64,000 bases of DNA, taken from the IMG/VR virus record IMGVR_UViG_3300029641_000003. One strand, written 5' to 3'. Numbering within the stretch: the first letter of the stretch is position 1; every line of letters begins with the position of its first letter. The notes below the pieces were generated by a model. The model did no database searches, was not told the DNA's origin, and was given only the letters and a program-made list of their open reading frames with translations. A program made the position numbers and the translations under genes. This stretch comes from a virus (taxonomy: Duplodnaviria; Heunggongvirae; Uroviricota; Caudoviricetes). Shown here piece after piece: positions 18,429 through 43,518 of the stretch.

Positions 18429-19000
18429 AAAACCTCCCAGTCAGTAGCGATAATATCAACACCAGTTGCAAACCAGTCTGTCTGTGCCTGTAAATCCCCA
18501 TTCATCATTACCAGGCGAGGCATAACCATCACATCACAACCTTCAACAATATCGAATGCCTCTTCCGGCAGGAATTCGACGAGCTTTTCTTTGCTGCCAA
18601 CACTGCCACGGAGCATCGATATATAGCTCCCTTTAGGCCATGATGTTCGCCGGGCATCAAGCCCCTTCATCATCCAGTAAAAGGCCGATGAGAACGGGAT
18701 GTTCTTTTTGGCGATGAGCACGTTATTCGCTTCTGTGTACTTCAGGAACTTAATTAACCTTACCATTGACTCGGATAACGCAATGTACGGCTCATGATTG
18801 ATTGCTGACACGCTTACGCCGTGCAGTCCAACACTTACCACAGTCATATCACCGTTCTGTGCGGTTTCGATGTTGACGCCTTTACGAACTAACGCTGCAT
18901 AAAGCTCCTCGCGCTTTTGCGTCCAGCATTCTCGTCGCCCTATAAAGTCACTCAAAACGAGATCATCTTCTGAATACGCGTTATCGTTCGCCGTTAACAT
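18425..19000 (-). CDS. two-domain protein with C-terminal DUF2829/Tad2-like domain
   Basis: 191 aa; C-terminal ARRTSWPKGSYI ... TDWFATGVDIIATDWEVF resembles the 10121..10783 C-terminus. Confidence 0.55.
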   Translation of the reverse strand: MLTANDNAYSEDDLVLSDFIGRRECWTQKREELYAALVRKGVNIETAQNGDMTVVSVGLHGVSVSAINHEPYIALSESMVRLIKFLKYTEANNVLIAKKNIPFSSAFYWMMKGLDARRTSWPKGSYISMLRGSVGSKEKLVEFLPEEAFDIVEGCDVMVMPRLVMMNGDLQAQTDWFATGVDIIATDWEVF

Positions 19001-19454: not shown

Positions 19455-19530
19455 TGGTGGCCCCTACCGGACTTGAACCGGTGACCGTGCGATTATGAGT
19501 CGCCCGCTCTAACCACTGAGCTAAAGGGCC
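19455..19530 (-). tRNA. tRNA with CAU anticodon (Ile2-like, or Met)
   Basis: Reverse complement GGCCCTTTAGCTCAGTGGTTAGAGCGGGCGACTCATAATCGCACGGTCACCGGTTCAAGTCCGGTAGGGGCCACCA folds as cloverleaf; resembles recalled E. coli ileX. Confidence 0.8.
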
Positions 19531-19539
19531 AGATTACTG

Positions 19540-19668
19540 TTAATTACGCTTACGCTTTTTGCCAGAACCGCGTAAGGCTTTTGCCGCTTGCTCTACCCCG
19601 TATGCAACCACCAGCAGAAACAATAATGTCCACTCCGGGTTTTTATCGGCAAACGCCCAAAAATTCAT
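19540..19668 (-). CDS. small protein (42 aa) with hydrophobic core and basic tail
   Basis: Read by eye: MNFWAFADKNPEWTLLFLLVVAYGVEQAAKALRGSGKKRKRN; ATG overlaps stop of the 77-aa gene upstream. Confidence 0.3.
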   Translation of the reverse strand: MNFWAFADKNPEWTLLFLLVVAYGVEQAAKALRGSGKKRKRN

Positions 19669-19901
19669 CACTTACAGCCACCTTGCATTTCCTCGGATAA
19701 TTCATTGACTTTAGTGCTCAATAAGTAATCAAAGTAAAGATAAAACACAAAAGTAACGATAGTGCTTAAAGTGTCTGAAATTGCGTATTTCAGCTCAGGA
19801 AGCATGACAAAGCAGACAAATAGCGGAAGAAATAACTGCACTATGCACAGACTCTCCTTCCACAACCATCTATATCTGAAGTCTGACAACAAAAACTCCA
19901 T
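19668..19901 (-). CDS. small membrane protein
   Basis: 77 aa with two hydrophobic helices. Confidence 0.4.
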   Translation of the reverse strand: MEFLLSDFRYRWLWKESLCIVQLFLPLFVCFVMLPELKYAISDTLSTIVTFVFYLYFDYLLSTKVNELSEEMQGGCK

Positions 19902-20026
19902 TGCTTGAAACTTTATTAGATTGCGGTGCCTGGTGCCTCCAGGTGACGTTAACCAGTTAACAATTAACGCCGGGATGTTTGACTTAACTATTAAGGAAAA
20001 TTGTTTTAACTGTTCCGCGTGCGCTT

Positions 20027-20059
20027 AGCCGCATTCACCGCAATGGTAAGAGCATTTGG
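20027..20059. repeat. tRNA-cluster repeat, copy B
   Basis: AGCCGCATTCACCGCAATGGTAAGAGCATTTGG; related copies near 19211, 20383 and inverted near 20465. Confidence 0.5.
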
Positions 20060-20149
20060 CTGGCTGGGCGGCGATGACGCCTGTACGCATTTGGTGATCC
20101 GGTTCTGCTTCCGGCATTCGCTTAATTAGCCAAATACTCTTAACGTTGC

Positions 20150-20236
20150 GCTGGCGGAGAGTAATGGAATCGAACCATCATCGCTTGCGCAATGGGACGG
20201 TTTTCAAGACCGCTTGAGCACCATGCTCCCTACTCT
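20150..20236 (-). tRNA. tRNA-Ser (UGA anticodon), long variable arm
   Basis: Acceptor stem GGAGAGT/ACTCTCC plus G-CCA; anticodon arm CGGTCTTGAAAACCG as in recalled E. coli tRNA-Ser; D-arm atypical. Confidence 0.6.
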
Positions 20237-20382
20237 CCAGTGATTGTGGTGGTCGGTACTGATCTCCGACTGCGCCTCTTTTTTTCATAGCCCATAAGGC
20301 CGGTCAGTGCGCTTGATGACTGAGGCATCGATATTTACTACGCCGCCTCGTTGCCATAGGGCGGACTTGCGCGCCAGCAACG

Positions 20383-20486
20383 CGCATTCACCACAACGGA
20401 AAGAGCATTTATGGCTCGCATCGCGGGAAGCGGGAAAAAACCCACGGTAGAGAGTCGAACTCTACAAATGCTCTTACCTGTTGTGT
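20383..20486. repeat. inverted pair of the tRNA-cluster repeat (copies C and D)
   Basis: CACCACAACGGAAAGAGCATTT ... AAATGCTCTTACCTGTTGTG flank a GTAGAGAGTCGAACTCTAC hairpin 3' of tRNA-Thr. Confidence 0.45.
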
Positions 20487-20562
20487 TGGTGCCGGTTAAC
20501 GGACTCGAACCGCTGACATCCTGCTTACAAGGCAGGCGCTCTACCAACTGAGCTAAACCGGC
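20487..20562 (-). tRNA. tRNA-Thr (UGU)
   Basis: Reverse complement GCCGGTTTAGCTCAGTTGGTAGAGCGCCTGCCTTGTAAGCAGGATGTCAGCGGTTCGAGTCCGTTAACCGGCACCA. Confidence 0.85.
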
Positions 20563-20564
20563 AT

Positions 20565-20639
20565 TGGCGATGGTGGATGGATTCGAACCACCGACCAGTT
20601 GGTTAACAGCCAACTGCTCTACCACTGAGCTACACCATC
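20565..20639 (-). tRNA. tRNA-Asn (GUU)
   Basis: Reverse complement ...GTTGGCTGTTAACCAAC...GGTTCGAATCC...CACCATCGCCA; abuts tRNA-Thr. Confidence 0.8.
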
Positions 20640-24283: not shown

Positions 24284-24458
24284 AAACCTCCTTAATTCAT
24301 AATCACGATAATAACAAGAGCGTTAGTTTTATCAAAACCGGGGGGAATACTACTAAAGAGATAGGTGGATGCAACAGGTCGGATTTGTTTTTAGAGCAAA
24401 TGGTGATAAGGGTCAACAAGCCGGGTAAATTGTATGTCATTTACCCAACTTGTTATTT

Positions 24459-24719
24459 TTAATGGTTTATTTTATCCGGTTCGTTAATTTCCGTAACCGC
24501 CTTGTCGATAGCGATCATCCATCCTTCATAGGATAAATCATCAACAAGCCCCACCAGCTTATCGTCAGTGTGCGGAAAATAAATCCATCCCCATTTCGAA
24601 GGGTTTTCTATATGCCGCAGGGTAAATACCCGCTTATAACGGTGGTATTCAAGGGCGTATCCCTTCCCTTGTGAGTACGCTTTTAAGTCGTCGATCGTAA
24701 ACCTACGATTCTTTCGCAT
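24459..24719 (-). CDS. hypothetical protein
   Basis: 86-aa ORF downstream of darB, same strand. Confidence 0.5.
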   Translation of the reverse strand: MRKNRRFTIDDLKAYSQGKGYALEYHRYKRVFTLRHIENPSKWGWIYFPHTDDKLVGLVDDLSYEGWMIAIDKAVTEINEPDKINH

Positions 24720-24721
24720 GG

Positions 24722-25156
24722 CTACCCCACGATTCGATATTTCTCTATAGACTCGTCGTAACTTGTGTATACGTATGGCTCTGTATCATCAGCATAAGGC
24801 GCGACTTCCAGAGCATGAACGGGATTGTATACCGCGTCATTTTCCAGGCGATCGCTCGAATACAGATGCCCGGCTAAAACCGTAAGCGCCGGGCGACTCA
24901 TTTTGTAGATCTCTGCCACATCACTATCTACAACTTGTCCAAATGATATGTCGCCGCGCTCCAGCAATAACGTTTTAAGCGCAGGCCACCACGGCCCATA
25001 AAGGTGATAAAGCTGTGGATCTCTTTTCAGCCTTTCCACCATGCCATCCAGATATGCATCCAGAAACGCCTCTTCACTCCTGCCATTGAGCGCCTGCGGC
25101 AAAATGTCCTCAAGGTAGGATTCCGTCGGTTTTACAGTGTCAATTAATGTCGTCAT
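24722..25156 (-). CDS. hypothetical protein
   Basis: 144-aa ORF immediately after darB. Confidence 0.5.
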   Translation of the reverse strand: MTTLIDTVKPTESYLEDILPQALNGRSEEAFLDAYLDGMVERLKRDPQLYHLYGPWWPALKTLLLERGDISFGQVVDSDVAEIYKMSRPALTVLAGHLYSSDRLENDAVYNPVHALEVAPYADDTEPYVYTSYDESIEKYRIVG

Positions 25157-25192
25157 TCAAATTCGGCCCCGGATGGGGCCGCTCCTTATCTG

Positions 25193-28100
25193 TTAGGCCG
25201 CATCGGCGATTATTTTACGCAGTTCATCTACCGAGTAACGCGTAGATACCATCCATGCCGGACGGTCAAAGTTCACATCAGCAACCGGGTTTGCTTCAAA
25301 ATTCCAGAAACGCCCGCCAATCTTCTTAATCGCGTCTTTGGCGTTTCGTATTGTCGAGGAACCAGGTTGGTCGGCAATGAGATAAACCGCGCCAACGTCC
25401 TCGCTGACGCTCCACCAGCGCCCGCGAACACGCGCCTTAGCGCGAATCGGCTTATCATTAACCACAATGATATAGTCATCATTCGCCGCTTCATCAGCTC
25501 TGGCTTCAGCCACTGCCGCCTGCTCTTCTCTTTTGCTTTCAGCCTGTTCAAGCCTTTCCGCGATCTCTGATTCGGTGGCCCCGCCGTTTTTCAGCGATAC
25601 ATAGTCTTGCCACGTAGCTGATTTGAGCGCATCCGGCAACTCATTCACATAGTCACCGTCTTTCAACTCACGGGCGCGGCGGGTAGCCATTTCTACCAGG
25701 CGATTAACAGAAACAGCATCAGCAAAATCGTCCTTACTAATTTTTTCATCAAATGCATTGATGACAGCCCCCACCTTAATCCACTGTGCTGCCGGTGATT
25801 CCAGGGGGTTATCAGCCTGGACTATGGCGAGTTTCGCTCCATCTACCCCATTATTCGCCAGCTGTTCCAGTGCCGCCCATCCATCTGCATCACTGAGTGA
25901 TTTATATTGCTCAAACAATGCATCGCGCCAGGCCACCAGCGCAGAACGTGTTTTTTCGATCTTCGTCTTAATTTTCGCGATCTTGACCTGATTAAACATC
26001 CGTTCAATATCATCGATATTGCTAAAGGCTTTCATCCTGCCCTGGAATAAACGGTATGCCAGCACGGTCCTCCAGAATGATTCCAGACCTTCTCCGGACG
26101 GTTTGCGGAACAAGCTAAGAATATCTTCAGAAGTGACTTTATTAAGCGAACGACCTGACAGACCACGCCCAGCCATCCAGTTTTCGAACTCCTGGGCAAC
26201 ATCATCCATCGTTGCCTGTGCGCCCCATGCCTGCATTCCCTGGATGTAATCATACCCATACAATGCCTGGAGGAATCCCTCACCGTCCACGATATTCAGC
26301 GGGTTATCACTGGCTTGTATTTTTGCCACTTCACGCTTCAGCGCCTCATCGTTGCCATCTGGATATATCCATCGTTCAGGTGCTATATCCGATGCTCGCC
26401 CGATTTTTTGGCCTATCACGCCATCATAGGCCGATGACAGCGCGATCTGACCATCATCTGTGCGATATGCCCAGTATTTAATAGCTGACCCACCGCCCCA
26501 TGCATTACCAGGTTTACCAGCAATAACATTCATTACCCCATTGCGAATAGCATCATAGAACTGATCGCGAGTAAGTATTGTTGATAGCTGGTGGCACTGA
26601 ACACCACGCGCAGCCGTTGCGCGCGATTCAGCTACCCCCTCTTCAAAAGTTACCGCTTCAATCACAGAGTCAAACGGCAATGTAACGATTGACCCCGGTG
26701 ATCGAGCGTAACGACTTGCTCTATCCAGCCAGGCGATACGGCAGAGGTATTGTGCTTTTTCACCGTCAATTTTTTCCACCCGGACAATCGCTGTTGTTTC
26801 GCGATCATCAATGACTGCACGGTAATAACTACCTTTATGCAACAGGATATTCTTGTCAGTGCGCATATATTCCTGTGGGTTCTGAATAACATCGATACTG
26901 ATATCCAGCACACCAGACTTAATAGCGCGCTCCACATCACCACGAGAGCGTTTCATTATGGTATCCGCGTCTTTTGCCCTGGTGATCGCAAACCGCAGCA
27001 CCCGCGCACGTTTTCTGTAGCTACTCAACTGCTCAAGCGCGAATTTTTGCCCATTCCTGTTCGTACCCGCTTTTATCAGGTCGTCAAGATTTCGCTGGTA
27101 ATACTCTATCTGTTCCATCGCGCTTTTCAGTTCTGTCTCCATCATGCCGATATCTTTTCCAGCGGCGTTTGCCGCTTTCAGGTAGATATCGAGAGCATTG
27201 TTGGCCTCGCGCTGTGCTTTCAGTTTCAGACGTTCTTCACGCTCTTGCGCCTGGCGAGCCATGATTGCGCGGCGTTCTTCCGGGTTTGCCGCCAGCATAA
27301 TGGCGCGTTCATCAGCATCATCCGCATCACCATTGGCGATCTCTGACATGTCGGAGGTCATCACCATCTTGATCCAGTCTTTCTTACGTTTCAGCGTATC
27401 CAGACGGAAGTCGTCGAATGTGCCTTTGCCACAATAGTAGTGAACATTGACCTTCTCTTGCGGTGAACCTACGCGCGCACCGCGCCCATTTCGTTGGTCG
27501 ATACTGGCTGGTGTCCAGGGTAGTGTCAGGTGGTGGATATCGGTTGTCCCGATATGCAGGTTAATACCTACTTCAGCCTTCTTGTTACAGATAATGATGC
27601 GCGTGCGCCCTTCGTTATAGTCGGCGGCAATGCCTTCCATACCCTCAAGGCCAGCATCATTTTTAGCTGAGAGATAATCCTCATATTGGGCAAGTTTGCT
27701 GTAGTAGGTTTCCCATGCCCCTTCTTTGTATTCACCGTTTTTATTCGGAGTAGGTTCAGTCGGCTTATTCACCTTCTTCAGCTTGATGCCGCCAGCCTGG
27801 CTAACGGTCGTCGCATTGATAATGCCTATCTCCTGCTCCGGCATTTGCAGTGCACTGGCGATAATACGGCGCAGCTTCTGGTGCTGGGCTTTTTCATCAA
27901 TGAAGACAATTTGTTTACCGTTCTTCAGACCTTCACGAAGGTTTTCGATCAGCGCGGCATACTTCGGCGGGATGGGGTGTGATACCTGCTGCAGATCAAT
28001 CCCGGCGGCAGCAATGGCCTTCAGTATTTCAGCTTCCAGTTCAATGCTGGCGCGTATTTCAACATGCACCGGATGTTCACTAAAGGTGGTCTTCACTACC

Positions 28101-31100
28101 TTGCTGGTACGTGTATTGACCAGTCCACCAGCGCCGTCTTCTTCGACCTCGTCTGCATCATCTGCCACTTTACCGCCAGCTACTTTTGGCAGGGCATCAG
28201 CAATAGCTTTTACCTTGTCTGCAAGCTCAACGGGGAACTGGAATGTAATCGCACTGGCATACAGATCCGGATCTATAGCAACCTTATCCATGTCGCGGAT
28301 GATGGAGAAGATGAAATCATCCGGTTTTTCGTTTGTGATATGCCCGTTTTCATCAACCGTCAGCGCATCTTTACTACTTAACTCCTGTGCACGCTTACGA
28401 AGTTCTTCATAAGCAGCCTCCTGCTCCCCTGTCATCGGGATCTGCAAGGTATTCTCGACAATATCAGGGATTTTAACCGTCGCCCCGACGTCCGCAGCAG
28501 TCTTCAGAGTAGTCCAGCGATGGAAAATACCACGCAGGCCATCAAGGTTCTGGAAGCCAACCAGCCCCTGCTTCTCTTCCACTTCCCCGGAAATTTTCTG
28601 GACCTGAACTGTGGCTGTTTTACCAAACACACGAACGAAATCATCAGGCGTAATGATGCCCATGCGCATCCACTCTTCCTGCGGAATGACAGTAGACAGC
28701 ATGTTGAAGGCATCAATCGGACTGTTCACCAGCGGTGTTGCCGTCAGCATGACTACACCACGCCCGTTGTTGCGTTTCATCATGTACGCAGCTTTTACAG
28801 CCATGTCGCGGGCCATCTTGGATACTGCCGGGTTAGGCAAATATGCCAGTTGTCCCGCTTCACGCCCGGCATTAAAGGAGTTGCGGTAGTTATGCCCCTC
28901 GTCGGCAATCACGCTATCGAAGTTCATATCCTCAAAGTACGGGATATTCTGCTTCTTCGTTGTACCGGTATTCGCGGCCTGATCCTTAATCTTGTTCTTC
29001 TTCTGCGCATCACGGTGTTTACCAGACGCCAGGTCAAGACGCCCCATTTCCACAGCATTAAAGACAGCTTGCTGTGAGTTCTCCTCGATGGTTTTTTCTC
29101 GTAGCGGGATAGACGCGAATTGTTCTTTTGTCATGATGACCGTTCGCCAATTTGACGACGGGATCATGTTCATGCGCTGAACGATAACGGCGCTGGCGGA
29201 CTCTTTCACAACATTTCTGGTAAGAGGCTGCCCGTTACTGTCGAGGCGGGGTTCGCCATTTTCATCAAGCACCGGCGCGGTCAGAATATTGCCGTCTTCA
29301 TCACGAACCTCATCCAGACCGATAAACATCATATTGGCGAAGGCATCAGCACTGTAGAAGCTCTGTGCCTCGTGATACCAGTTCTGATAAACCGCCTTCG
29401 GAACAACAATACACGTGCGTTTAGTGCGACCTGTTTCGAAGTTATACGCCTCAAGCGCAAGCGCAGTCGTGGTTTTACCCAGCCCGGTACCAAATCCCAT
29501 GATGCCGCGCCCATCTTCTGACAAGCGACGAACTTCTTCATTCTGATAAGTCAGAGGAATGCGCTTTCCACTAATCCCTTCCAGGCCAAGCGGTGCGTTA
29601 GAGTGCGTAAACGGAATGAAGCCATTGAATGCGTCGTTATAGTCACGGGCTATCTGATCCGCCTGCGGGTGGGTGCGTAACCAGTCGTTAAAACTAACTT
29701 CCAGTTGAGCAATTTTATCCAGGTACTCGTTAGCGTTCTGCCCACGCGGTTTAACACCGTTCAGGTAGTTTTCTAACTGGTTCAGGAAGCCGTCTTTATT
29801 GTTGGCCTTCTTGAACTCATTCCCGTTTTTGCCGTTTACGGTTCGTAGTTGATAGCCGGTAAATACCCCGTCCTTACCTTCGTAATCGTCCGGAGATACC
29901 AGAATGCCATCGACGACCTTCAGATCAGGTTCAGTGTACTTAAACTCGTCATAGCCCTGCTCTGCCAGGAACTCTTTTATCAAGCGGCGATCCAGCCAGC
30001 GGGCGTTCAGATTAACGGTGACTTTATTTAGTGGCGTGAAAATGCGTTTCTCTTCGATTTTCGCCAACTGACGCTCAAAGTTCGCTTTCTGCTCACCTGT
30101 TGACGCATCACGCCAACCCACCAGCAATGTTGTTTTGGTTGCAATATCGCCGCTGGTGGCGCGGTCCATCGGCAGCAGGCAGCCATACCCATCAATAGCG
30201 ATATCATCAAATTTCGCCAGGTATTCAAGGGCCGCGTCGTCGTCCTCTGGCAGTTCACCAGCAAACGCCTCACGAAAGTCGCCCAGCGTTATAGGATTAA
30301 GGGCTACATCACTGAAAAGATGTGCTATCACTTGTTCAGGACGTGTAAAGTCAATACCGGCAGCACCATCCGTTACATCAAGTCGCCCTGCCAGAAGGTC
30401 AGAAGTGGAACCATCCTGTTTCACATTGCCAGTGAACGTCATCCAGTTTTTAGCGCCAGCTTCTGCAAGCCCATTCAGCTTAATCGCGTGCGGTGGTCCA
30501 TACTTCGCAACTTCTGCTGCCGCCAGGCGGGATGCATCTGCCAGTTTGTCATCAACGTTCACCCCCAGGTTACGCAAATCAAGTGCCTTGTTGATCAACT
30601 GCCCTATCAACGCACCGCGCATAACGCGCTCCCTGTCTTTTTCTCGCTGTTTGCCAGCAAAGCGAATCATTGCTGCCACTTCATCACTGACAACCGATGG
30701 ATAGTCGGACGCGATCGCCGATATCTGGTCCCATGACAAAGCCAGAATCCCGTTTGTTGACTGGAACGCGATCTGCAGATCGCCAAACGTCGAAACACCA
30801 TATCGACTTACATCAAGCGCGGAGGATTTGGTTGTCGTGTCCTTAACCCATTTCAGACCATCAAACTCATGCCAGATACCGCCTACAAGGCGTTTATCGC
30901 CCACTTTCGCGCCCTGCCATGCCTGAGTAGTTACGCCGAGCAAATCCCAATTGATGCGACTATCAAAGCGACGAGATAGCGCGGTTTTCATCGACTCATT
31001 GGATACACGACCGTCTTTTTTCACCACCAGGGTATTGCGGAAGCTGGTGCGTTCCATGTCGCCGTAAACAAATCGCTTCCCTTCGGTTGTAAACCATTTC

Positions 31101-32041
31101 CCTTTGAGGAAGGTATCCCAAAGGACGTTTGCCGATTTGAGCGTTGCATCATCCGTGTCGGGGATCATCTCCAGGAAGGTTTCCGGGTGTTTACGCAATA
31201 CCCATACGTCCACCACCGTATCTGTACCGGATTCGCTGAACGTACCAGAAGGCATACGATGCGCGCCCAAAAATTCCGCTTTACGGCTGACTTTATCGCG
31301 CAATTTTTTGTATTTCGTACCATCGGTCATGCCATTCGGCACCACCAATACAATTAGTCCACCAGGCTTAACCTTGTCGATTGTGCGCAGCACAAAGTAA
31401 TTGCCAACGTTCTTCTCGTTTGCATATGCCGGATCAAGCCCGGCGACACCGGAACGCCCTTCACCAAACGGTACGTTACCAACAGCGTGATCATACATTG
31501 CGTCTTTCGCCGCCAGCGCCTCAAACGCCCCGATATTCACATCGTCTTCCGGGTGCAAAAGCTGGTTTATTCGACCGGAAATCGGAGACAGTTCGGCGCT
31601 GGTCATTATCATGCCCTGCCGTTTTGTCTCCTGGAAAATACCTGTGCCCGCTGATGGTTCCAGTACGTGCCCGCCATCAATACCGTAGTCAGCAAACAGA
31701 TCCCATATACCTTCAGCCATAAACTGTGGCGTGTAGTATTCGTATTGGCTGCCCTCACCATCTGTCAGGCCGCCTTCACCGGTATACCCGGCAAGAATCT
31801 GACGTTGTTCGTCAGTTAATTTCGCCCCATCGAAGCCGGGCGGAAGGGAATTAAGAAGATTTACTGCGGCGTTGTTTGCTGCCCGGCGTGTTTTCTGAAT
31901 ACTGACGCCATCGACTTTCTTAACGCCAAAGGTCACTACAGCTCGCGGTTTATGCAACCGACTAACAATTTCAATCAGCGCCCCAATGCTGGTGGCCTGG
32001 CTAATTGAATCAATTATTTTGTCCAAAGGAAGCCCCCTCAA
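25193..32041 (-). CDS. darB: DarB-like antirestriction protein (N6-adenine methyltransferase + helicase)
   Basis: 2282 aa; MTase motifs VLEPSAGTGIF and NVPFG; helicase Walker A GFGTGLGKTTTAL and DEGH box VIADEGHNYRN; size matches P1 DarB. Confidence 0.9.
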   Translation of the reverse strand: MRGLPLDKIIDSISQATSIGALIEIVSRLHKPRAVVTFGVKKVDGVSIQKTRRAANNAAVNLLNSLPPGFDGAKLTDEQRQILAGYTGEGGLTDGEGSQYEYYTPQFMAEGIWDLFADYGIDGGHVLEPSAGTGIFQETKRQGMIMTSAELSPISGRINQLLHPEDDVNIGAFEALAAKDAMYDHAVGNVPFGEGRSGVAGLDPAYANEKNVGNYFVLRTIDKVKPGGLIVLVVPNGMTDGTKYKKLRDKVSRKAEFLGAHRMPSGTFSESGTDTVVDVWVLRKHPETFLEMIPDTDDATLKSANVLWDTFLKGKWFTTEGKRFVYGDMERTSFRNTLVVKKDGRVSNESMKTALSRRFDSRINWDLLGVTTQAWQGAKVGDKRLVGGIWHEFDGLKWVKDTTTKSSALDVSRYGVSTFGDLQIAFQSTNGILALSWDQISAIASDYPSVVSDEVAAMIRFAGKQREKDRERVMRGALIGQLINKALDLRNLGVNVDDKLADASRLAAAEVAKYGPPHAIKLNGLAEAGAKNWMTFTGNVKQDGSTSDLLAGRLDVTDGAAGIDFTRPEQVIAHLFSDVALNPITLGDFREAFAGELPEDDDAALEYLAKFDDIAIDGYGCLLPMDRATSGDIATKTTLLVGWRDASTGEQKANFERQLAKIEEKRIFTPLNKVTVNLNARWLDRRLIKEFLAEQGYDEFKYTEPDLKVVDGILVSPDDYEGKDGVFTGYQLRTVNGKNGNEFKKANNKDGFLNQLENYLNGVKPRGQNANEYLDKIAQLEVSFNDWLRTHPQADQIARDYNDAFNGFIPFTHSNAPLGLEGISGKRIPLTYQNEEVRRLSEDGRGIMGFGTGLGKTTTALALEAYNFETGRTKRTCIVVPKAVYQNWYHEAQSFYSADAFANMMFIGLDEVRDEDGNILTAPVLDENGEPRLDSNGQPLTRNVVKESASAVIVQRMNMIPSSNWRTVIMTKEQFASIPLREKTIEENSQQAVFNAVEMGRLDLASGKHRDAQKKNKIKDQAANTGTTKKQNIPYFEDMNFDSVIADEGHNYRNSFNAGREAGQLAYLPNPAVSKMARDMAVKAAYMMKRNNGRGVVMLTATPLVNSPIDAFNMLSTVIPQEEWMRMGIITPDDFVRVFGKTATVQVQKISGEVEEKQGLVGFQNLDGLRGIFHRWTTLKTAADVGATVKIPDIVENTLQIPMTGEQEAAYEELRKRAQELSSKDALTVDENGHITNEKPDDFIFSIIRDMDKVAIDPDLYASAITFQFPVELADKVKAIADALPKVAGGKVADDADEVEEDGAGGLVNTRTSKVVKTTFSEHPVHVEIRASIELEAEILKAIAAAGIDLQQVSHPIPPKYAALIENLREGLKNGKQIVFIDEKAQHQKLRRIIASALQMPEQEIGIINATTVSQAGGIKLKKVNKPTEPTPNKNGEYKEGAWETYYSKLAQYEDYLSAKNDAGLEGMEGIAADYNEGRTRIIICNKKAEVGINLHIGTTDIHHLTLPWTPASIDQRNGRGARVGSPQEKVNVHYYCGKGTFDDFRLDTLKRKKDWIKMVMTSDMSEIANGDADDADERAIMLAANPEERRAIMARQAQEREERLKLKAQREANNALDIYLKAANAAGKDIGMMETELKSAMEQIEYYQRNLDDLIKAGTNRNGQKFALEQLSSYRKRARVLRFAITRAKDADTIMKRSRGDVERAIKSGVLDISIDVIQNPQEYMRTDKNILLHKGSYYRAVIDDRETTAIVRVEKIDGEKAQYLCRIAWLDRASRYARSPGSIVTLPFDSVIEAVTFEEGVAESRATAARGVQCHQLSTILTRDQFYDAIRNGVMNVIAGKPGNAWGGGSAIKYWAYRTDDGQIALSSAYDGVIGQKIGRASDIAPERWIYPDGNDEALKREVAKIQASDNPLNIVDGEGFLQALYGYDYIQGMQAWGAQATMDDVAQEFENWMAGRGLSGRSLNKVTSEDILSLFRKPSGEGLESFWRTVLAYRLFQGRMKAFSNIDDIERMFNQVKIAKIKTKIEKTRSALVAWRDALFEQYKSLSDADGWAALEQLANNGVDGAKLAIVQADNPLESPAAQWIKVGAVINAFDEKISKDDFADAVSVNRLVEMATRRARELKDGDYVNELPDALKSATWQDYVSLKNGGATESEIAERLEQAESKREEQAAVAEARADEAANDDYIIVVNDKPIRAKARVRGRWWSVSEDVGAVYLIADQPGSSTIRNAKDAIKKIGGRFWNFEANPVADVNFDRPAWMVSTRYSVDELRKIIADAA

Positions 32042-32178: not shown

Positions 32179-32664
32179 ATGGCAAACATTGAACCTCGCT
32201 GGCTTATTGAGGCCCGTAAAAATATTGGAGTCACCGAAATAAAAGGAGCGAAACACAATCCAGAGATCGTTCAGTTCTGGCGGGATATTAAGCGCAGCGG
32301 AATTAAAGACGACGAAACGCCGTGGTGCGCTGCATTTGTTGGTGCAATGCTGGAACGTGTAGGTATCCGCTCAACAAGATTTGAGTCGGCAAAATCCTAT
32401 CTGGATTGGGGCGAGAAATTAGATACACCGGCATACGGATGTATCGTTGTATTTACCCGCGTAGGCGGTGGGCACGTAGGCTTCGTTGTCGGACACCGCG
32501 CCAATGGCGATCTGCTTGTCTTGGGTGGGAACCAGGGGGATGCTGTTAATATTCGCGCATTCCCAACATCAAGAGTGTCTGGCTATCGCTGGCCTGCTGG
32601 CGAACCACGCAATACAGCTCTGTTACCAGTCGGAGACGCAGCAACCTCAACTAATGAGGCATAA
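32179..32664 (+). CDS. NlpC/P60- or CHAP-like putative cell-wall hydrolase
   Basis: 161 aa; ETPWCAAFV (Cys) and GGHVGFVVG (His) spacing typical of this peptidase class. Confidence 0.5.
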   Translation: MANIEPRWLIEARKNIGVTEIKGAKHNPEIVQFWRDIKRSGIKDDETPWCAAFVGAMLERVGIRSTRFESAKSYLDWGEKLDTPAYGCIVVFTRVGGGHVGFVVGHRANGDLLVLGGNQGDAVNIRAFPTSRVSGYRWPAGEPRNTALLPVGDAATSTNEA

Positions 32665-36410: not shown

Positions 36411-38096
36411 TTAATTATTGCTCATCACAAATTTTGCAAAGTTGATTAATTGTTCTTGCGTCCAGTTTTCCGGATCGTCACCGGACGACAACGGCGCGGA
36501 TTCGTACATACCATGCTCGTTGTTTTGCTCTGATTCATTCGCCTTAAACTCTTTGATCATTACGTTGAGAGTGTCATCGTCGATACGAAGCTGTTCGGTG
36601 AACAGATAACGCATAAACGCGTCGCTACCCGCCAGTTTCGGGTTGTTCTGGATCTGGTCCATTATTTGCGAGATGACAGCTACGAAGTTGGCGCGCGCAT
36701 CCAGCTCTCGGTTTTCCTCTTCCTGGATAGCTGTATTCATTGAGTTGAATTGCACGTCATAAGGACGGTTTTTTTCGGTGTAAACCTTCCCGTATTTATA
36801 AGCGAGGTGAATGTCATGAAGCCGATAAATAGTCCGCTGGGCGGCCTGTCTGATCCAGTTCGCGCGTAATGCGGCCTGGATAGCTGTTTGCTGCCAACCG
36901 CCTTCTCCAAGTCCACCACTCATCTGATCAGCCCAGCCAAGCATTGTTGCGTCAATACCGAGGCTTGCCGCGAGCTGTCGGAGATGAAACATAACGTCTT
37001 CGATACCACTGATATCTGCGGGTATAGATTGCGTATCAATGGTGATCCCGTTCTTCCCATCCCCCATGACGGGTATCAGATGGTTAAGTACAGATGGGAG
37101 AGCATTAGAATTAATCGACCGTTGCGCTACGAGGTCGCTATGACGCTTCAGTGCCTGGCTGACCCCGCGCGTATAATTCGCCGCGTTTACCGGATCTATC
37201 GTGTTCGTTGTGAGTGCAATCAGGCGATCAATTTTTGCAGCGTTGTTTCGCGTTGCTTTCAGCGCAGCAAGCGCGGCACATAAATTCAGGTAGGGTTCAT
37301 AACTGTATTCAAGAAACGACGTACCGTAGTTCTGCGTCTCCATTAACGGCTTGTCCTGCTGTTCACTAAGCAAGGAATAGCCTTTAGTGCCGTAAGTTAC
37401 TGGCATTACTTTATGCTGAGGCGTCCAGTACGGGTTTTTCATGGAAACCAGATTCCACGGTTCGGTTATAACTCTGCGCAAAGTATGCGTATCCAGAATG
37501 TAATCACCGCTGAATCCGACAAGTTGGCTACCGCGATAAAACTCCTGAACGAAATGAGGGAGCGTGTAATAGCTCGACTCAATTCCAGTTATCCCCTTCC
37601 CTTGCTCTGCATATGGACGGATATACGACACACCGAAAATAGCCATGATCATGGCCCACGATGGAAGGCCATCATTAATCATTGAGCTTAAATCAGCGGT
37701 CAATTCCTCACATCGACTTACAGCCTCCTTATCCGCCCCATTTTTCGGCGCGAGAATAAATGCGAGGCCTGTTTTTTTTGATGGAGCCAGAGAATGCGCA
37801 ATGTGAATGTTTAATGCTGTGGAGATAGTCGGACTTTTCGCCATCGTCTCCAGTATGTTGTATTTTTGCAGGCGGTCACTCGGTAATTCTGCCGATATAG
37901 ATACTGTATCCGCCGCGCTTGTCATGCCATCGCTATTGCTCCCCAGGATGCCAGGACGCAAGGCGGACAGGCCAGAACGAGCAACGACGCTATGCCCGCT
38001 CGCAAATACGACCGGATCGGCAGGCGTAACATCACCACCGCTGAAGGCTTTCTTCAATGCCGACAGAAAGCCCTTGTTTTTGTCTTTCGTTGCCAT
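36411..38096 (-). CDS. putative portal protein (Prt position)
   Basis: 561 aa; size and position relative to the Pro-like gene match P1 prt-pro. Confidence 0.5.
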   Translation of the reverse strand: MATKDKNKGFLSALKKAFSGGDVTPADPVVFASGHSVVARSGLSALRPGILGSNSDGMTSAADTVSISAELPSDRLQKYNILETMAKSPTISTALNIHIAHSLAPSKKTGLAFILAPKNGADKEAVSRCEELTADLSSMINDGLPSWAMIMAIFGVSYIRPYAEQGKGITGIESSYYTLPHFVQEFYRGSQLVGFSGDYILDTHTLRRVITEPWNLVSMKNPYWTPQHKVMPVTYGTKGYSLLSEQQDKPLMETQNYGTSFLEYSYEPYLNLCAALAALKATRNNAAKIDRLIALTTNTIDPVNAANYTRGVSQALKRHSDLVAQRSINSNALPSVLNHLIPVMGDGKNGITIDTQSIPADISGIEDVMFHLRQLAASLGIDATMLGWADQMSGGLGEGGWQQTAIQAALRANWIRQAAQRTIYRLHDIHLAYKYGKVYTEKNRPYDVQFNSMNTAIQEEENRELDARANFVAVISQIMDQIQNNPKLAGSDAFMRYLFTEQLRIDDDTLNVMIKEFKANESEQNNEHGMYESAPLSSGDDPENWTQEQLINFAKFVMSNN

Positions 38097-40562: not shown

Positions 40563-40934
40563 TCACGCTGCATACCCGTTAGCTGAAACCCAGTTTACGG
40601 TCTGTTCTTTGGCCTGGTCGAGTGTCAAAAATTCACCAATATATTGAGATATGCCTCTCAAAGCATCGATGAACTCCATTTGTGATGATTTAGTAAATGC
40701 ACCACTAAGGAAGTCAGCAACAATTTTAGGCGTTTCTTGTGCCGCCGGTTGCACTTCCTCTTCTTGCTGTTGTGCTGGATTATTCGATGAACCAAGCCCC
40801 AGCTTCATCATCACTTCAACTATCCGCACGCCAATAGTGACACGTTGTACCGCAGTCGCGCTTTTTTGCGCTGACATCAGCTCAGACAGTTCTTTGCCTA
40901 AGCTAAGGCGCTCCGTTACTGATATTTTCACCAC
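40563..40934 (-). CDS. hypothetical protein (DdrA position)
   Basis: 123-aa ORF whose start overlaps the darA-like stop. Confidence 0.45.
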   Translation of the reverse strand: MVKISVTERLSLGKELSELMSAQKSATAVQRVTIGVRIVEVMMKLGLGSSNNPAQQQEEEVQPAAQETPKIVADFLSGAFTKSSQMEFIDALRGISQYIGEFLTLDQAKEQTVNWVSANGYAA

Positions 40935-42880
40935 ACGCCCCCTTGTTGTATCTCTGCCAGAATGTTGATCAGGTGATCGGCTGCCGCACCAACAAGTGAC
41001 TCGTTCTCATCATATCGACCTGCGTTGATAAGAACATTAGCTGCCTCCTGAATGCGATCAAACTCCGCTCTAATCACCGTCAAATCACGGGACGTAAACT
41101 GCAACGGCACGGATTTCAGATATTCCAGCGCATTGTCCGCCTCCTGATCAGCCTCACTAACTACTGGCCCATCTGAACCTGTATCAGACTCTTTGGGGGA
41201 TTCAGGTTCAGACTCAGGTTCTGGTTCTGGTACTGCTTCCGGTGCCTGATCTAATGTCTGTTCAGCTTCGACTACTTCTGATTGATTCTGAAGCGCGTCA
41301 TAGATATCCATTATAAAAAGGTTCTCCCCATCTCCAAGTGGATAAGCGACGTTAGGAAATGCTTTGCGGAAGAGGATTTTTATCTGCGCCTTAAAGGTTT
41401 TCAAGTCGCTTCCAAACAGATCAACATAGCCATCAATATGGTTCGACATACTGGACGCAACCAATTCGCCTGCAATCTCTTTCAATTCATCGTCACCAGG
41501 GAGATATAGCAACTCGTACTGACTGACTTCTTCGTCTGTCAGTTTGCGGTCATACGTAATGATTCCGTGACGAGCATATTCGTAATACGGATCAGCCTGA
41601 TCAGGACGGTCAAGTACAGCTTTATTTCCTTCAGGAACCGCACCAACACCCGCCGGGCGAGATTGGAGCGCATAGCGATATTTACCAACCTCCAGGGGAT
41701 CAGGACGTGATGCTGGTTGTGGCTCCTGTTCAGGCTGCGGCTGATCAGTTGGCTCAGGCTGGCCCGGCAACACATCCACTTTGTATTGATCAGCATTATG
41801 TTCACGATAGGCTTTAAGTAATTTGGTTGCAGCGTCCGCTGAACTCCCACCTTTAACAGCACTGACATCAATACTGAAATTGCCTTCTGGTGCCTCAATC
41901 GTGACAAAGCTATCACTGCCTGACGTGACATACTTAACTACAGCACCATTATCCAGCGTTGTTTGGCCTTCTGTAGCAAGATTATGTTTTATGTGTCGCA
42001 GTTGATCATTGAAGGCACGCTCTTTAGTTCCTTGGCTCTTAGCTGACAATAAATTATCGCGTTTAGCCTGCAATTCCGCGTTAAGGGCTTTTTGTGCGTC
42101 TAATTTATTCTGCATATCATTGAGTGTTGAACGTTTCTCTGCCAGCCCCCGCTGTGCGTCTTCAACCTGCTCAATCAGCACAGAACGTTCTTCTGCCAGC
42201 TTGTCGGCTTCATTGAGATACCCCTCAATATCAGCCTTCATTTTGTCCTGGCGCTCCTTTGATTTTTTGAATTTTGCACTGTTACGCTCAATGAGGTTAG
42301 AAAGCGCCTGACACACCTGGCTCAGAGATACATCACGCCCACCGATTGGCGCAACAACATGCGTAACGTTTCTTTTGTTAAGAAGAAACTGAAACGCAAC
42401 CAGCTCGTCATCCCCTTTAATTCTTGTGCCGTCTGCGGTTGGAGAATGGAAAATTATGCTTGTCGTTTGTCCATCGGTTAGAGGTATTTGTGCTGTCACA
42501 ACAGGGATATTAGCAACCCGGCGCACGCGCCCAATGATTGCCCCACCGATACTATTACGTCCGTCCTCATATTCACCTGCCTCATCCGTACCCGCAGCAA
42601 TGTCAGTGCCATTCAGGCCGCGATTAAGCGCCCGGACAAATGCTCGCATTGTTTGCGCTAACCGCAATTTTGTTGTGGTTATAGCTTCGAACATTGCCTC
42701 ATTGGTAGTTACCAAAATTTCGTTGCCCATATAGGCCAGCTCGATATCTTCCAGCGTCGCAGGCTCGATAAGTAAATCATCCTCGGTGATATCTTCCGCC
42801 ACCCAACGATTAGGCGTATATCCAGTGAGCGTATCTGCAAAAGTGGACTGGATATTTATTCGAATAGGTTTCTTTATCAT
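40928..42880 (-). CDS. darA: DarA-like internal head protein
   Basis: 650 aa, coiled-coil middle, Pro/Glu-rich linkers; lydA/lydB-like genes upstream as in P1 darA operon. Confidence 0.6.
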   Translation of the reverse strand: MIKKPIRINIQSTFADTLTGYTPNRWVAEDITEDDLLIEPATLEDIELAYMGNEILVTTNEAMFEAITTTKLRLAQTMRAFVRALNRGLNGTDIAAGTDEAGEYEDGRNSIGGAIIGRVRRVANIPVVTAQIPLTDGQTTSIIFHSPTADGTRIKGDDELVAFQFLLNKRNVTHVVAPIGGRDVSLSQVCQALSNLIERNSAKFKKSKERQDKMKADIEGYLNEADKLAEERSVLIEQVEDAQRGLAEKRSTLNDMQNKLDAQKALNAELQAKRDNLLSAKSQGTKERAFNDQLRHIKHNLATEGQTTLDNGAVVKYVTSGSDSFVTIEAPEGNFSIDVSAVKGGSSADAATKLLKAYREHNADQYKVDVLPGQPEPTDQPQPEQEPQPASRPDPLEVGKYRYALQSRPAGVGAVPEGNKAVLDRPDQADPYYEYARHGIITYDRKLTDEEVSQYELLYLPGDDELKEIAGELVASSMSNHIDGYVDLFGSDLKTFKAQIKILFRKAFPNVAYPLGDGENLFIMDIYDALQNQSEVVEAEQTLDQAPEAVPEPEPESEPESPKESDTGSDGPVVSEADQEADNALEYLKSVPLQFTSRDLTVIRAEFDRIQEAANVLINAGRYDENESLVGAAADHLINILAEIQQGGVW

Positions 42881-43518
42881 GCATCTTCCTCCAGGCGCGC
42901 TATTTCTTCTTTCAATACGCGAGTTTTCGCCAGTTCCTGCGCCATCTCGGTTCTAATGATTTCAGTTTCTCTTGTTGCGCGGTCTGAATTACCTTGCACC
43001 TGATTTAATTTTTCTTTGGCCCTTTCAATATCCTCGCGGATCGCATCGCGAGATTCCTTTGCCTCTGCTAGTTTCTGCGCATTGGACTTAACGCCTTTTA
43101 TTTTCTTATTCCCATCATCAATATCTTTCGCCGCACGAGCTAACTTACGCGCCAATGATTTCTGAAATGATGATGCGCCTTTATTAAATAAAGCAGCCAG
43201 TGATTGCCCTAAAGCCGTCAGCGTTTTAACAGGCTTGAAAGGAACAATTTTTCCGTTCAGTTTTACACCAGAAATATCACCAGTATCATTAACCTGAACG
43301 TCCATCGTCTGCTCATCGATTCCGATAAGGGTAAACGTGCGCGTCATGATCCCGTCTTTCTTCCTGCCATTACTGGCGGGGATCACCCTCGCTATCTTGT
43401 AGCCTCCTTTACCGATTTCTTTGACGAGTTTTGCCAGCCCCTTTTCGTTTAACTCATCATAATTAAGAAGAACATAATTAGACTTATTTGACATTCCAGT
43501 CTCCTTCACACTTTTCAA
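42877..43518 (-). CDS. hypothetical protein (Hdf position)
   Basis: 213-aa ORF overlapping darA start. Confidence 0.4.
   Translation of the reverse strand: MKSVKETGMSNKSNYVLLNYDELNEKGLAKLVKEIGKGGYKIARVIPASNGRKKDGIMTRTFTLIGIDEQTMDVQVNDTGDISGVKLNGKIVPFKPVKTLTALGQSLAALFNKGASSFQKSLARKLARAAKDIDDGNKKIKGVKSNAQKLAEAKESRDAIREDIERAKEKLNQVQGNSDRATRETEIIRTEMAQELAKTRVLKEEIARLEEDA

Follow-up and report, generated by a model that had tools for sequence, protein, structure and literature searches.

The window, i.e. the whole stretch of 64,000 nucleotides (nt) from IMG/VR virus record IMGVR_UViG_3300029641_000003 (Caudoviricetes), carries on its minus strand three consecutive genes that are addressed here: a giant gene related to darB of phage P1, a homologue of P1 ulx, and a gene for a small protein of 86 amino acids (aa), which follows ulx. 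A sequence-only reading of this DNA had delimited three open reading frames (ORFs) at this place, the longest of them mechanically called as 25193..32041. All three were confirmed at the coordinates given there, and both small ORFs start with ATG (Table 1).

The 7.9-kb region comprising these genes is 96.2% identical at the nucleotide level to Escherichia phage D6 (MF356679 / NC_050154), in which the three genes correspond, in this order, to orf15, orf14 and orf13. Colinearity with D6 extends over the whole window at 72–97% identity, but the window is not D6 itself, as some parts are only 72–92% identical. The region is also present in at least 121 plasmid records (98 from Escherichia, 14 from Salmonella, 6 from Shigella, 2 from Pantoea and 1 from Xenorhabdus), with 95–99% identity to about 80 plasmids of E. 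coli, Salmonella and Shigella; the closest record is the E. coli plasmid NZ_CP104667 (99.0%). Colinearity with D6 and the occurrence in plasmids therefore identify the window as a D6-type phage-plasmid of the P1 family, and sequence comparison makes it highly probable that the locus represents its string of genes darB, ulx and lxc-like. The gene order darB, ulx, small gene was found in P1 and in every lineage sampled. GenBank labels D6 orf15 as ‘defense against restriction; similar to P1 gene darB’, orf14 as ‘similar to P1 gene ulx’ and orf13 as ‘hypothetical protein’, and in some RefSeq plasmids the ulx homologue is named ‘olxA’. Hence, the ‘defence against restriction’ operon formed by darB and ulx is already known here: its annotation exists in the nearest relative, and many sequenced plasmids carry it.

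Table 1. Coordinates of the features discussed in the text (aa, amino acid position in DarB).
Feature	Position in the window	Strand	Basis or remark
darB orthologue, 2277 aa	25193..32026	-	probable TTG start 32026; mechanical ORF reaches TTG 32041
N6-adenine DNA methyltransferase domain, about aa 90-290	31157..31759	-	Pfam; motifs same as in P1
Methyltransferase motif I, EPSAGTG (LEPSAGTG), aa 123			identical to P1 DarB
Methyltransferase motif IV, NVPF (GNVPFG), aa 184			identical to P1 DarB
SNF2/DExH superfamily-2 helicase core, about aa 826-1600	27227..29551	-	Pfam; motifs conserved with P1
Helicase motif I, GTGLGKT, aa 846			identical or nearly identical to P1
Helicase motif II, DEGH, aa 1042			identical or nearly identical to P1
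Helicase motif III, TATP, aa 1095			identical or nearly identical to P1
Helicase motif VI, QRNGRGAR, aa 1511			identical or nearly identical to P1
DarB C-terminal third, aa 1601-2277	25196..27226	-	no Pfam match; poorly conserved
7-bp G+C hairpin CGGCCCC-ATCC-GGGGCCG in the 36-nt darB-ulx spacer (25157..25192)	25164..25181	-	sequence and folding
ulx orthologue, 144 aa	24722..25156	-	homology to P1 Ulx; 3' of darB
86-aa gene, homologue of D6 orf13, phrog_6844	24459..24719	-	P1 lxc slot; ATG 2 nt past the ulx stop
Long inverted repeat AACAAG-TT-GGGTAAAT / ATTTACCC-GG-CTTGTT	24415..24454	-	starts 5 nt past the stop of the 86-aa gene
C1-type prophage repressor	13538..14638	+	E = 2e-7 vs P1 C1; D6 orf1 ‘similar to P1 gene C1’
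hdf homologue	42877..43518	-	40% identity to P1, E = 7e-30
darA homologue	40928..42880	-	40% identity to P1, E = 2e-143
ddrA homologue	40563..40934	-	36% identity to P1, E = 5e-25
Short ddrB homologue, 461 aa	39086..40471	-	64% identity to P1; PF18763 ddrB-ParB domain, E = 2.5e-40

The darB and ulx orthologues and the Dar set

Read from the first TTG at 32041, the giant ORF comprises 2282 codons and runs uninterrupted over 6.8 kb, which together with the full-length homology to DarB makes a chance ORF impossible. BLASTP aligned the protein with P1 DarB at 43% identity across aa 1–1935 (1526 bits), and it shares 98% aa identity and the start with D6 orf15. The PHROG families matched were phrog_1685 (whole length, 3487 bits), phrog_11801 and phrog_10089 (DarB-like). 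The 5’ end reads TTG AGG GGG CTT CCT TTG GAC AAA, and the second TTG, at 32026, lies five codons downstream of the first. The gene almost certainly starts at this second TTG, because GAGGGGG precedes it at a 5-nt spacing and because P1 DarB has its Met1, and D6 orf15 its annotated start, at the aligned position.

According to Pfam, the order of domains in the protein is N6_Mtase (aa 157–287), SNF2 (845–969), ResIII (831–1052) and Helicase_C (1469–1525). SNF2-rel_dom (E = 4.7e-13), ResIII and Helicase_C all exceeded the cut-off, while N6_Mtase lies right at its curated cut-off with 20.4 bits and Eco57I was matched weakly. P1 DarB, which has 2255 aa, contains the same dyad of methyltransferase and superfamily-2 helicase and is likewise followed immediately by ulx. 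Both modules look active, since all catalytic motifs are identical or nearly so in P1. Among solved structures, none of which is close to the giant protein, 7eew, a methyltransferase subunit of a type I restriction-modification (R-M) system, gave a weak match to the methyltransferase domain. Identity to P1 amounts to 40–68% per 100-aa window up to about aa 1600 and drops to 17–28% thereafter, and a single weak match (E = 3.7e-4) was obtained for the tail. The C-terminal third, barely alignable with that of P1, is thus lineage-specific and could be an interaction or target-specificity region. Upstream, darB is flanked by a divergently oriented gene for a CHAP-domain peptidoglycan hydrolase (32179..32664, plus strand; TIGR02594 family in RefSeq), whereas the portal gene prt takes this place in P1.

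The 144-aa protein encoded immediately downstream is 46% identical to P1 Ulx over 138 aa (E = 1e-44) and matches phrog_1629, ‘Ulx-like anti-restriction’ (E = 4.8e-59); by homology, it is the Ulx orthologue. Its gene lies immediately 3’ of darB in P1 and at 11 other loci. Length, position and the upstream arrangement of Shine-Dalgarno sequence, hairpin and ATG are common to P1 Ulx and the protein of the window, but their C-terminal tails differ. The DarB-like domain order proposed in the sequence-only reading is thereby upheld by full-length identity, retained catalytic motifs and the same gene order, while the 144-aa gene, to which that reading could assign no function, turned out to be ulx.

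The further genes of the P1 Dar system, hdf, darA, ddrA and ddrB, are located 7–11 kb from darB (Table 1), and homology searches showed all six Dar genes of the window to be orthologous to the P1 set. In P1, hdf provides an early Dar component, on which packaging of all other Dar proteins depends. The virion protein table of PMC9024508 places P1 Ulx in the head and states that it ‘aids DarB localization’; it is packaged later than Hdf and DarA, and Ulx, DarB and DdrB are named as those three Dar proteins that are linked with the type I systems EcoB and EcoK (PMC12810830). If the P1 pathway applied (PMC9024508, PMC12810830, PMC5512222), Hdf and DarA would be built into the procapsid first. DdrA, DdrB, DarB (about 40 copies) and Ulx would be added subsequently, and incorporation of DarB would require Ulx. 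Upon infection, the Dar proteins would exit the capsid along with the DNA, shielding it in cis from type I restriction of the EcoK/EcoB type. DarB is the archetype of the polyvalent-protein methylase-helicase dyads, which combine an EcoKI/TaqI-like adenine methyltransferase with a SWI2/SNF2 ATPase and are delivered with the invading DNA (Iyer et al. 2017, PMC5512222). According to the hypothesis of these authors, the SNF2 translocase would carry the adenine methylase along the incoming DNA.

Three points caution against a simple transfer of this scheme. Virion packaging and antirestriction of the present element are ascribed by analogy to P1. The first 30 aa of P1 DarB constitute a capsid-targeting signal, in which residues 6–10 are critical (PMC9024508); in the window protein only 5 of these 30 residues are identical, although the hydrophobic pattern is similar, and the critical residues are not conserved (DSISQ instead of MGVFR). 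Finally, of the 995 aa of P1 DdrB, only the N-terminal 442 have a counterpart in DdrB of the window, i.e. the C-terminal half is absent from this lineage. A P1-type late promoter (the Lpa box AAGTGAYT plus a -10 element) was not detectable upstream of darB, the sole full match in the window being located at 37394, and therefore the timing of expression remains inferred.

The 86-residue protein and competing readings of the locus

In P1, the slot downstream of ulx is occupied by lxc (formerly bof), giving the order darB, ulx, lxc. Lxc is an 82-aa co-repressor of C1, which associates with the complex of C1 and operator, stabilizes C1 on its operators and counters the anti-repressor; its overexpression raises the frequency of lysogenization (PMC8546580). 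A narrow family of the 86-aa protein comprised five clusters, always located after darB-ulx. When widened by an exhaustive search and a second profile search, the family grew to about 30 clusters of proteins with 82–95 aa, encoded by P1-like elements of Pantoea, Enterobacter, Citrobacter, Hafnia and Plesiomonas in addition to Escherichia; most members are encoded directly after ulx.

Comparison of the broad family profile with an Lxc profile using hhalign yielded E values of 2.6e-5 to 3.4e-5 at a probability of 72–75%, with 72 colinear columns covering nearly the full length. Targeted BLASTP detected similarity between individual members and Lxc as well: family member P0014 matched Lxc with E = 1.3e-5, P0010 matched an Lxc-like protein of Pantoea alvi with E = 1e-4, and the family protein of a Citrobacter locus (L015) matched Lxc with E = 2e-3. 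Among 38,880 PHROG families, the second-best hit of P0014 was the Lxc family, phrog_2160. When 1,215 background ORFs of comparable size were scored with the family hidden Markov model (HMM), the two Lxc lineages were the top matches from outside the family, with 11.8 and 9.1 bits, followed by the next ORF with 5.2 bits. AlphaFold2 (AF2) models of the 86-aa protein and of Lxc display the same helix-strand-strand-strand-helix order, and a C-terminal V-R-D/E-x-x-x-E-E-W motif is common to the family and Lxc. Thus, the two proteins agree in slot, in size (86 versus 82 aa), in predicted fold order and at the level of profiles, whereas pairwise BLAST is negative and the PHROG families are separate (6844 versus 2160).

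A second line of evidence comes from the immunity region. The C1-type repressor of the window (Table 1) shares only 21% identity with P1 C1, which it exceeds by about 80 aa in length; it is the presumed partner of the Lxc-like protein. Comparison of the window with locus L026 gave about 30% identity for C1 and 24–31% for the small protein, but 52–60% for DarB and Ulx. Overall, identities range from 21 to 30% for C1 and from about 15 to 31% for the 86-aa protein, as compared to 43–60% for DarB and Ulx, i.e. divergence is far stronger in the immunity region than among the structural and Dar genes. The C1-like divergence of the small gene indicates that it evolves with the immunity module rather than with the Dar module. 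One family member, P0042, is encoded apart from the Dar genes: in a metagenomic P1-like element (L024 / L025, 9001..9279), its gene lies between repL and morphogenesis genes. This element encodes RepL, Lpa and, 8 kb away, a C1-type repressor, and neither darB nor ulx is present within 9 kb. The 86-aa gene is therefore most likely part of the immunity circuit rather than of the antirestriction system.

Based on these comparisons, we lean slightly towards the reading that the 86-aa protein is a strongly diverged co-repressor of the Lxc type and not Dar cargo. For the more general claim that the phrog_6844 family with its about 30 clusters is an unrecognised, fast-evolving counterpart of Lxc, the evidence appears evenly balanced. 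The assumed Lxc-like protein would function both in the lysogen and during early infection by stabilizing C1-operator complexes and by countering the anti-repressor, as in P1 (PMC8546580), and it would have co-diverged with the very different C1 of its lineage.

Several results weigh against the assignment to Lxc. In direct BLASTP the 86-aa protein had no similarity to Lxc, and the narrow profile of the D6 type retrieved nothing in Lxc either. In a shuffling control, 2 of 5,000 shuffled Lxc sequences reached the score that the real sequence obtained with the family HMM. The AF2 model of Lxc is of low confidence, with a predicted local distance difference test (pLDDT) score of 57.6 as compared to 79 for the 86-aa protein, and a Foldseek search of BFVD and PDB with the latter model returned no match at E <= 0.001. 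Whereas P1 lxc is served by three promoters within ulx, our scan for sigma-70-like sites on the minus strand of 24722..25156 found none at the thresholds used; the scan was crude and the negative result is a weak one. A Foldseek search of BFVD with the Lxc model revealed no link, but was uninformative because this model is poor; it gave weak HicA-like matches. Neither Lxc nor Ulx nor the 86-aa protein is represented by a model in Pfam or NCBIfam.

Alternatively, the small gene could encode an unrelated α-β3-α protein in a variable slot behind ulx, for instance a nucleic-acid binding protein or another anti-defence factor. Such replacement by non-homologous genes is frequent in accessory slots of phage-plasmids, and the reading would account for a similarity to Lxc that is visible at the profile level only and stays below 80% probability, and for a protein without match in Pfam, NCBIfam, PDB or BFVD. 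However, the several independent weak matches all point to Lxc and none elsewhere, and an unrelated protein would hardly be expected to align colinearly over nearly its full length with an equal-sized partner, to follow the same predicted order of secondary structures and to share the C-terminal motif. We therefore consider this alternative rather unlikely.

It appears improbable that the 86-aa protein belongs to the Dar components as an additional member, which would be packaged into the head and either be required for protection against restriction or extend it. The tight linkage of the gene to ulx within the operon and its position directly after darB-ulx in most lineages would fit such a role, and the failure to detect a promoter inside ulx suggests co-transcription with the late cargo genes. 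However, the gene of P0042 stands alone without darB or ulx, the corresponding slot in P1 is occupied by an immunity gene, a text search of the paper on the P1 virion proteome gave no mention of ‘Lxc’ (PMC9024508), and the family exhibits both a homology signal to Lxc and a divergence rate like that of C1 and unlike that of Dar proteins. Consequently, the proposal of the sequence-only reading that both small genes may be additional antirestriction cargo holds for the 144-aa gene, i.e. ulx, for which this role was already known, but is not favoured for the 86-aa gene.

That the giant protein is instead a cellular-type defence or R-M enzyme serving the host of the prophage (DISARM DrmD-like, or a methylase-helicase similar to type ISP or type III) can be dismissed almost completely, as the weak NCBIfam matches to DISARM DrmD, DpdE and a Dnd restriction enzyme over the C-terminal lobe of the helicase face the absence of a nuclease domain in Pfam as well as full-length orthology and synteny with P1 darB, including ulx and the darA operon. 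An identity as DISARM, Dpd or Dnd-type enzyme was rejected because these matches scored 28–45 bits, far under the curated cut-offs of 500–1,100 bits.

If the 86-aa protein is indeed the Lxc counterpart, all phage-plasmids of the P1 family would possess the Lxc layer of the lysis-lysogeny switch known from P1, and Lxc and C1 would form an immunity-specificity pair that co-diverges. The diverged C1/Lxc pairs would then provide a natural set for studies of the lysis-lysogeny decision in P1, and assignment of D6 orf13 (phrog_6844, ‘unknown function’) to Lxc would tidy the annotation of common phage-plasmids of E. coli and Salmonella. Otherwise our analysis adds little, since DarB and Ulx homologues of D6-like phage-plasmids are already present in GenBank annotation.

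Putative RNA signals upstream of ulx and downstream of the 86-aa gene

The short spacer between darB and ulx contains a G+C-rich hairpin (Table 1). The sequence AAGGAG (25182..25187) directly abuts the 5’ side of the hairpin, and the ATG of ulx follows 7 nt past its 3’ side. The same layout, i.e. a GGAG Shine-Dalgarno sequence, a G+C hairpin of 7–8 bp, 6–9 nt and the ATG, was found in P1 and at ten other loci (sites: L003 10436..10468; loci L008, L009, L011-L017, L022, L026). The stem sequences vary by lineage (CGGCCCC, CGCCCGG, CGGCCC, GGCCYGG, AGCGCCC), yet they always pair. Folded singly, nine distinct spacers yielded -14 to -17 kcal/mol with z-scores of -2.4 to -3.7. MAFFT combined with RNAalifold predicted no pairs for these spacers, whose stems are unalignable because of differing loop lengths. 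The hairpin is not a canonical terminator, since it lacks a U-tract.

Split ribosome-binding sites of similar layout, in which a remote Shine-Dalgarno sequence is moved close to the AUG by a hairpin, occur in genes 38 and 25 of phage T4. By its sequence and position, the conserved hairpin may act likewise, so that translation of ulx would depend on its folding to bring the Shine-Dalgarno sequence to the start codon. Alternatively, it may be an element for RNA processing or stability that sets Ulx expression. The conserved hairpin ahead of ulx may help in the engineering of P1 vectors for DarB/Ulx-based protein delivery.

The long inverted repeat downstream of the 86-aa gene (Table 1) is probably the terminator of the operon or an RNA end. 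In the terminator scan, its core (24423..24446) was scored as terminator-like on the plus strand, because the required T-rich tail is present only on that side of the palindrome.

Other genes in the window

Four tRNA genes (Met-CAT, Ser-TGA, Thr-TGT and Asn-GTT) were detected by ARAGORN on the minus strand at 19455..20639, whereas the GenBank record of D6 (L004 6084..7850) lists three tRNAs only, which lie on the opposite strand and do not include tRNA-Met. A 191-aa protein encoded at 18425..19000 on the minus strand contains a Tad2-like (Thoeris anti-defence 2) domain, PF11195, scoring 40.2 bits (cut-off 25). Its D6 homologue is orf6, annotated as ‘hypothetical’, and the gene represents a second candidate anti-defence gene of the element.

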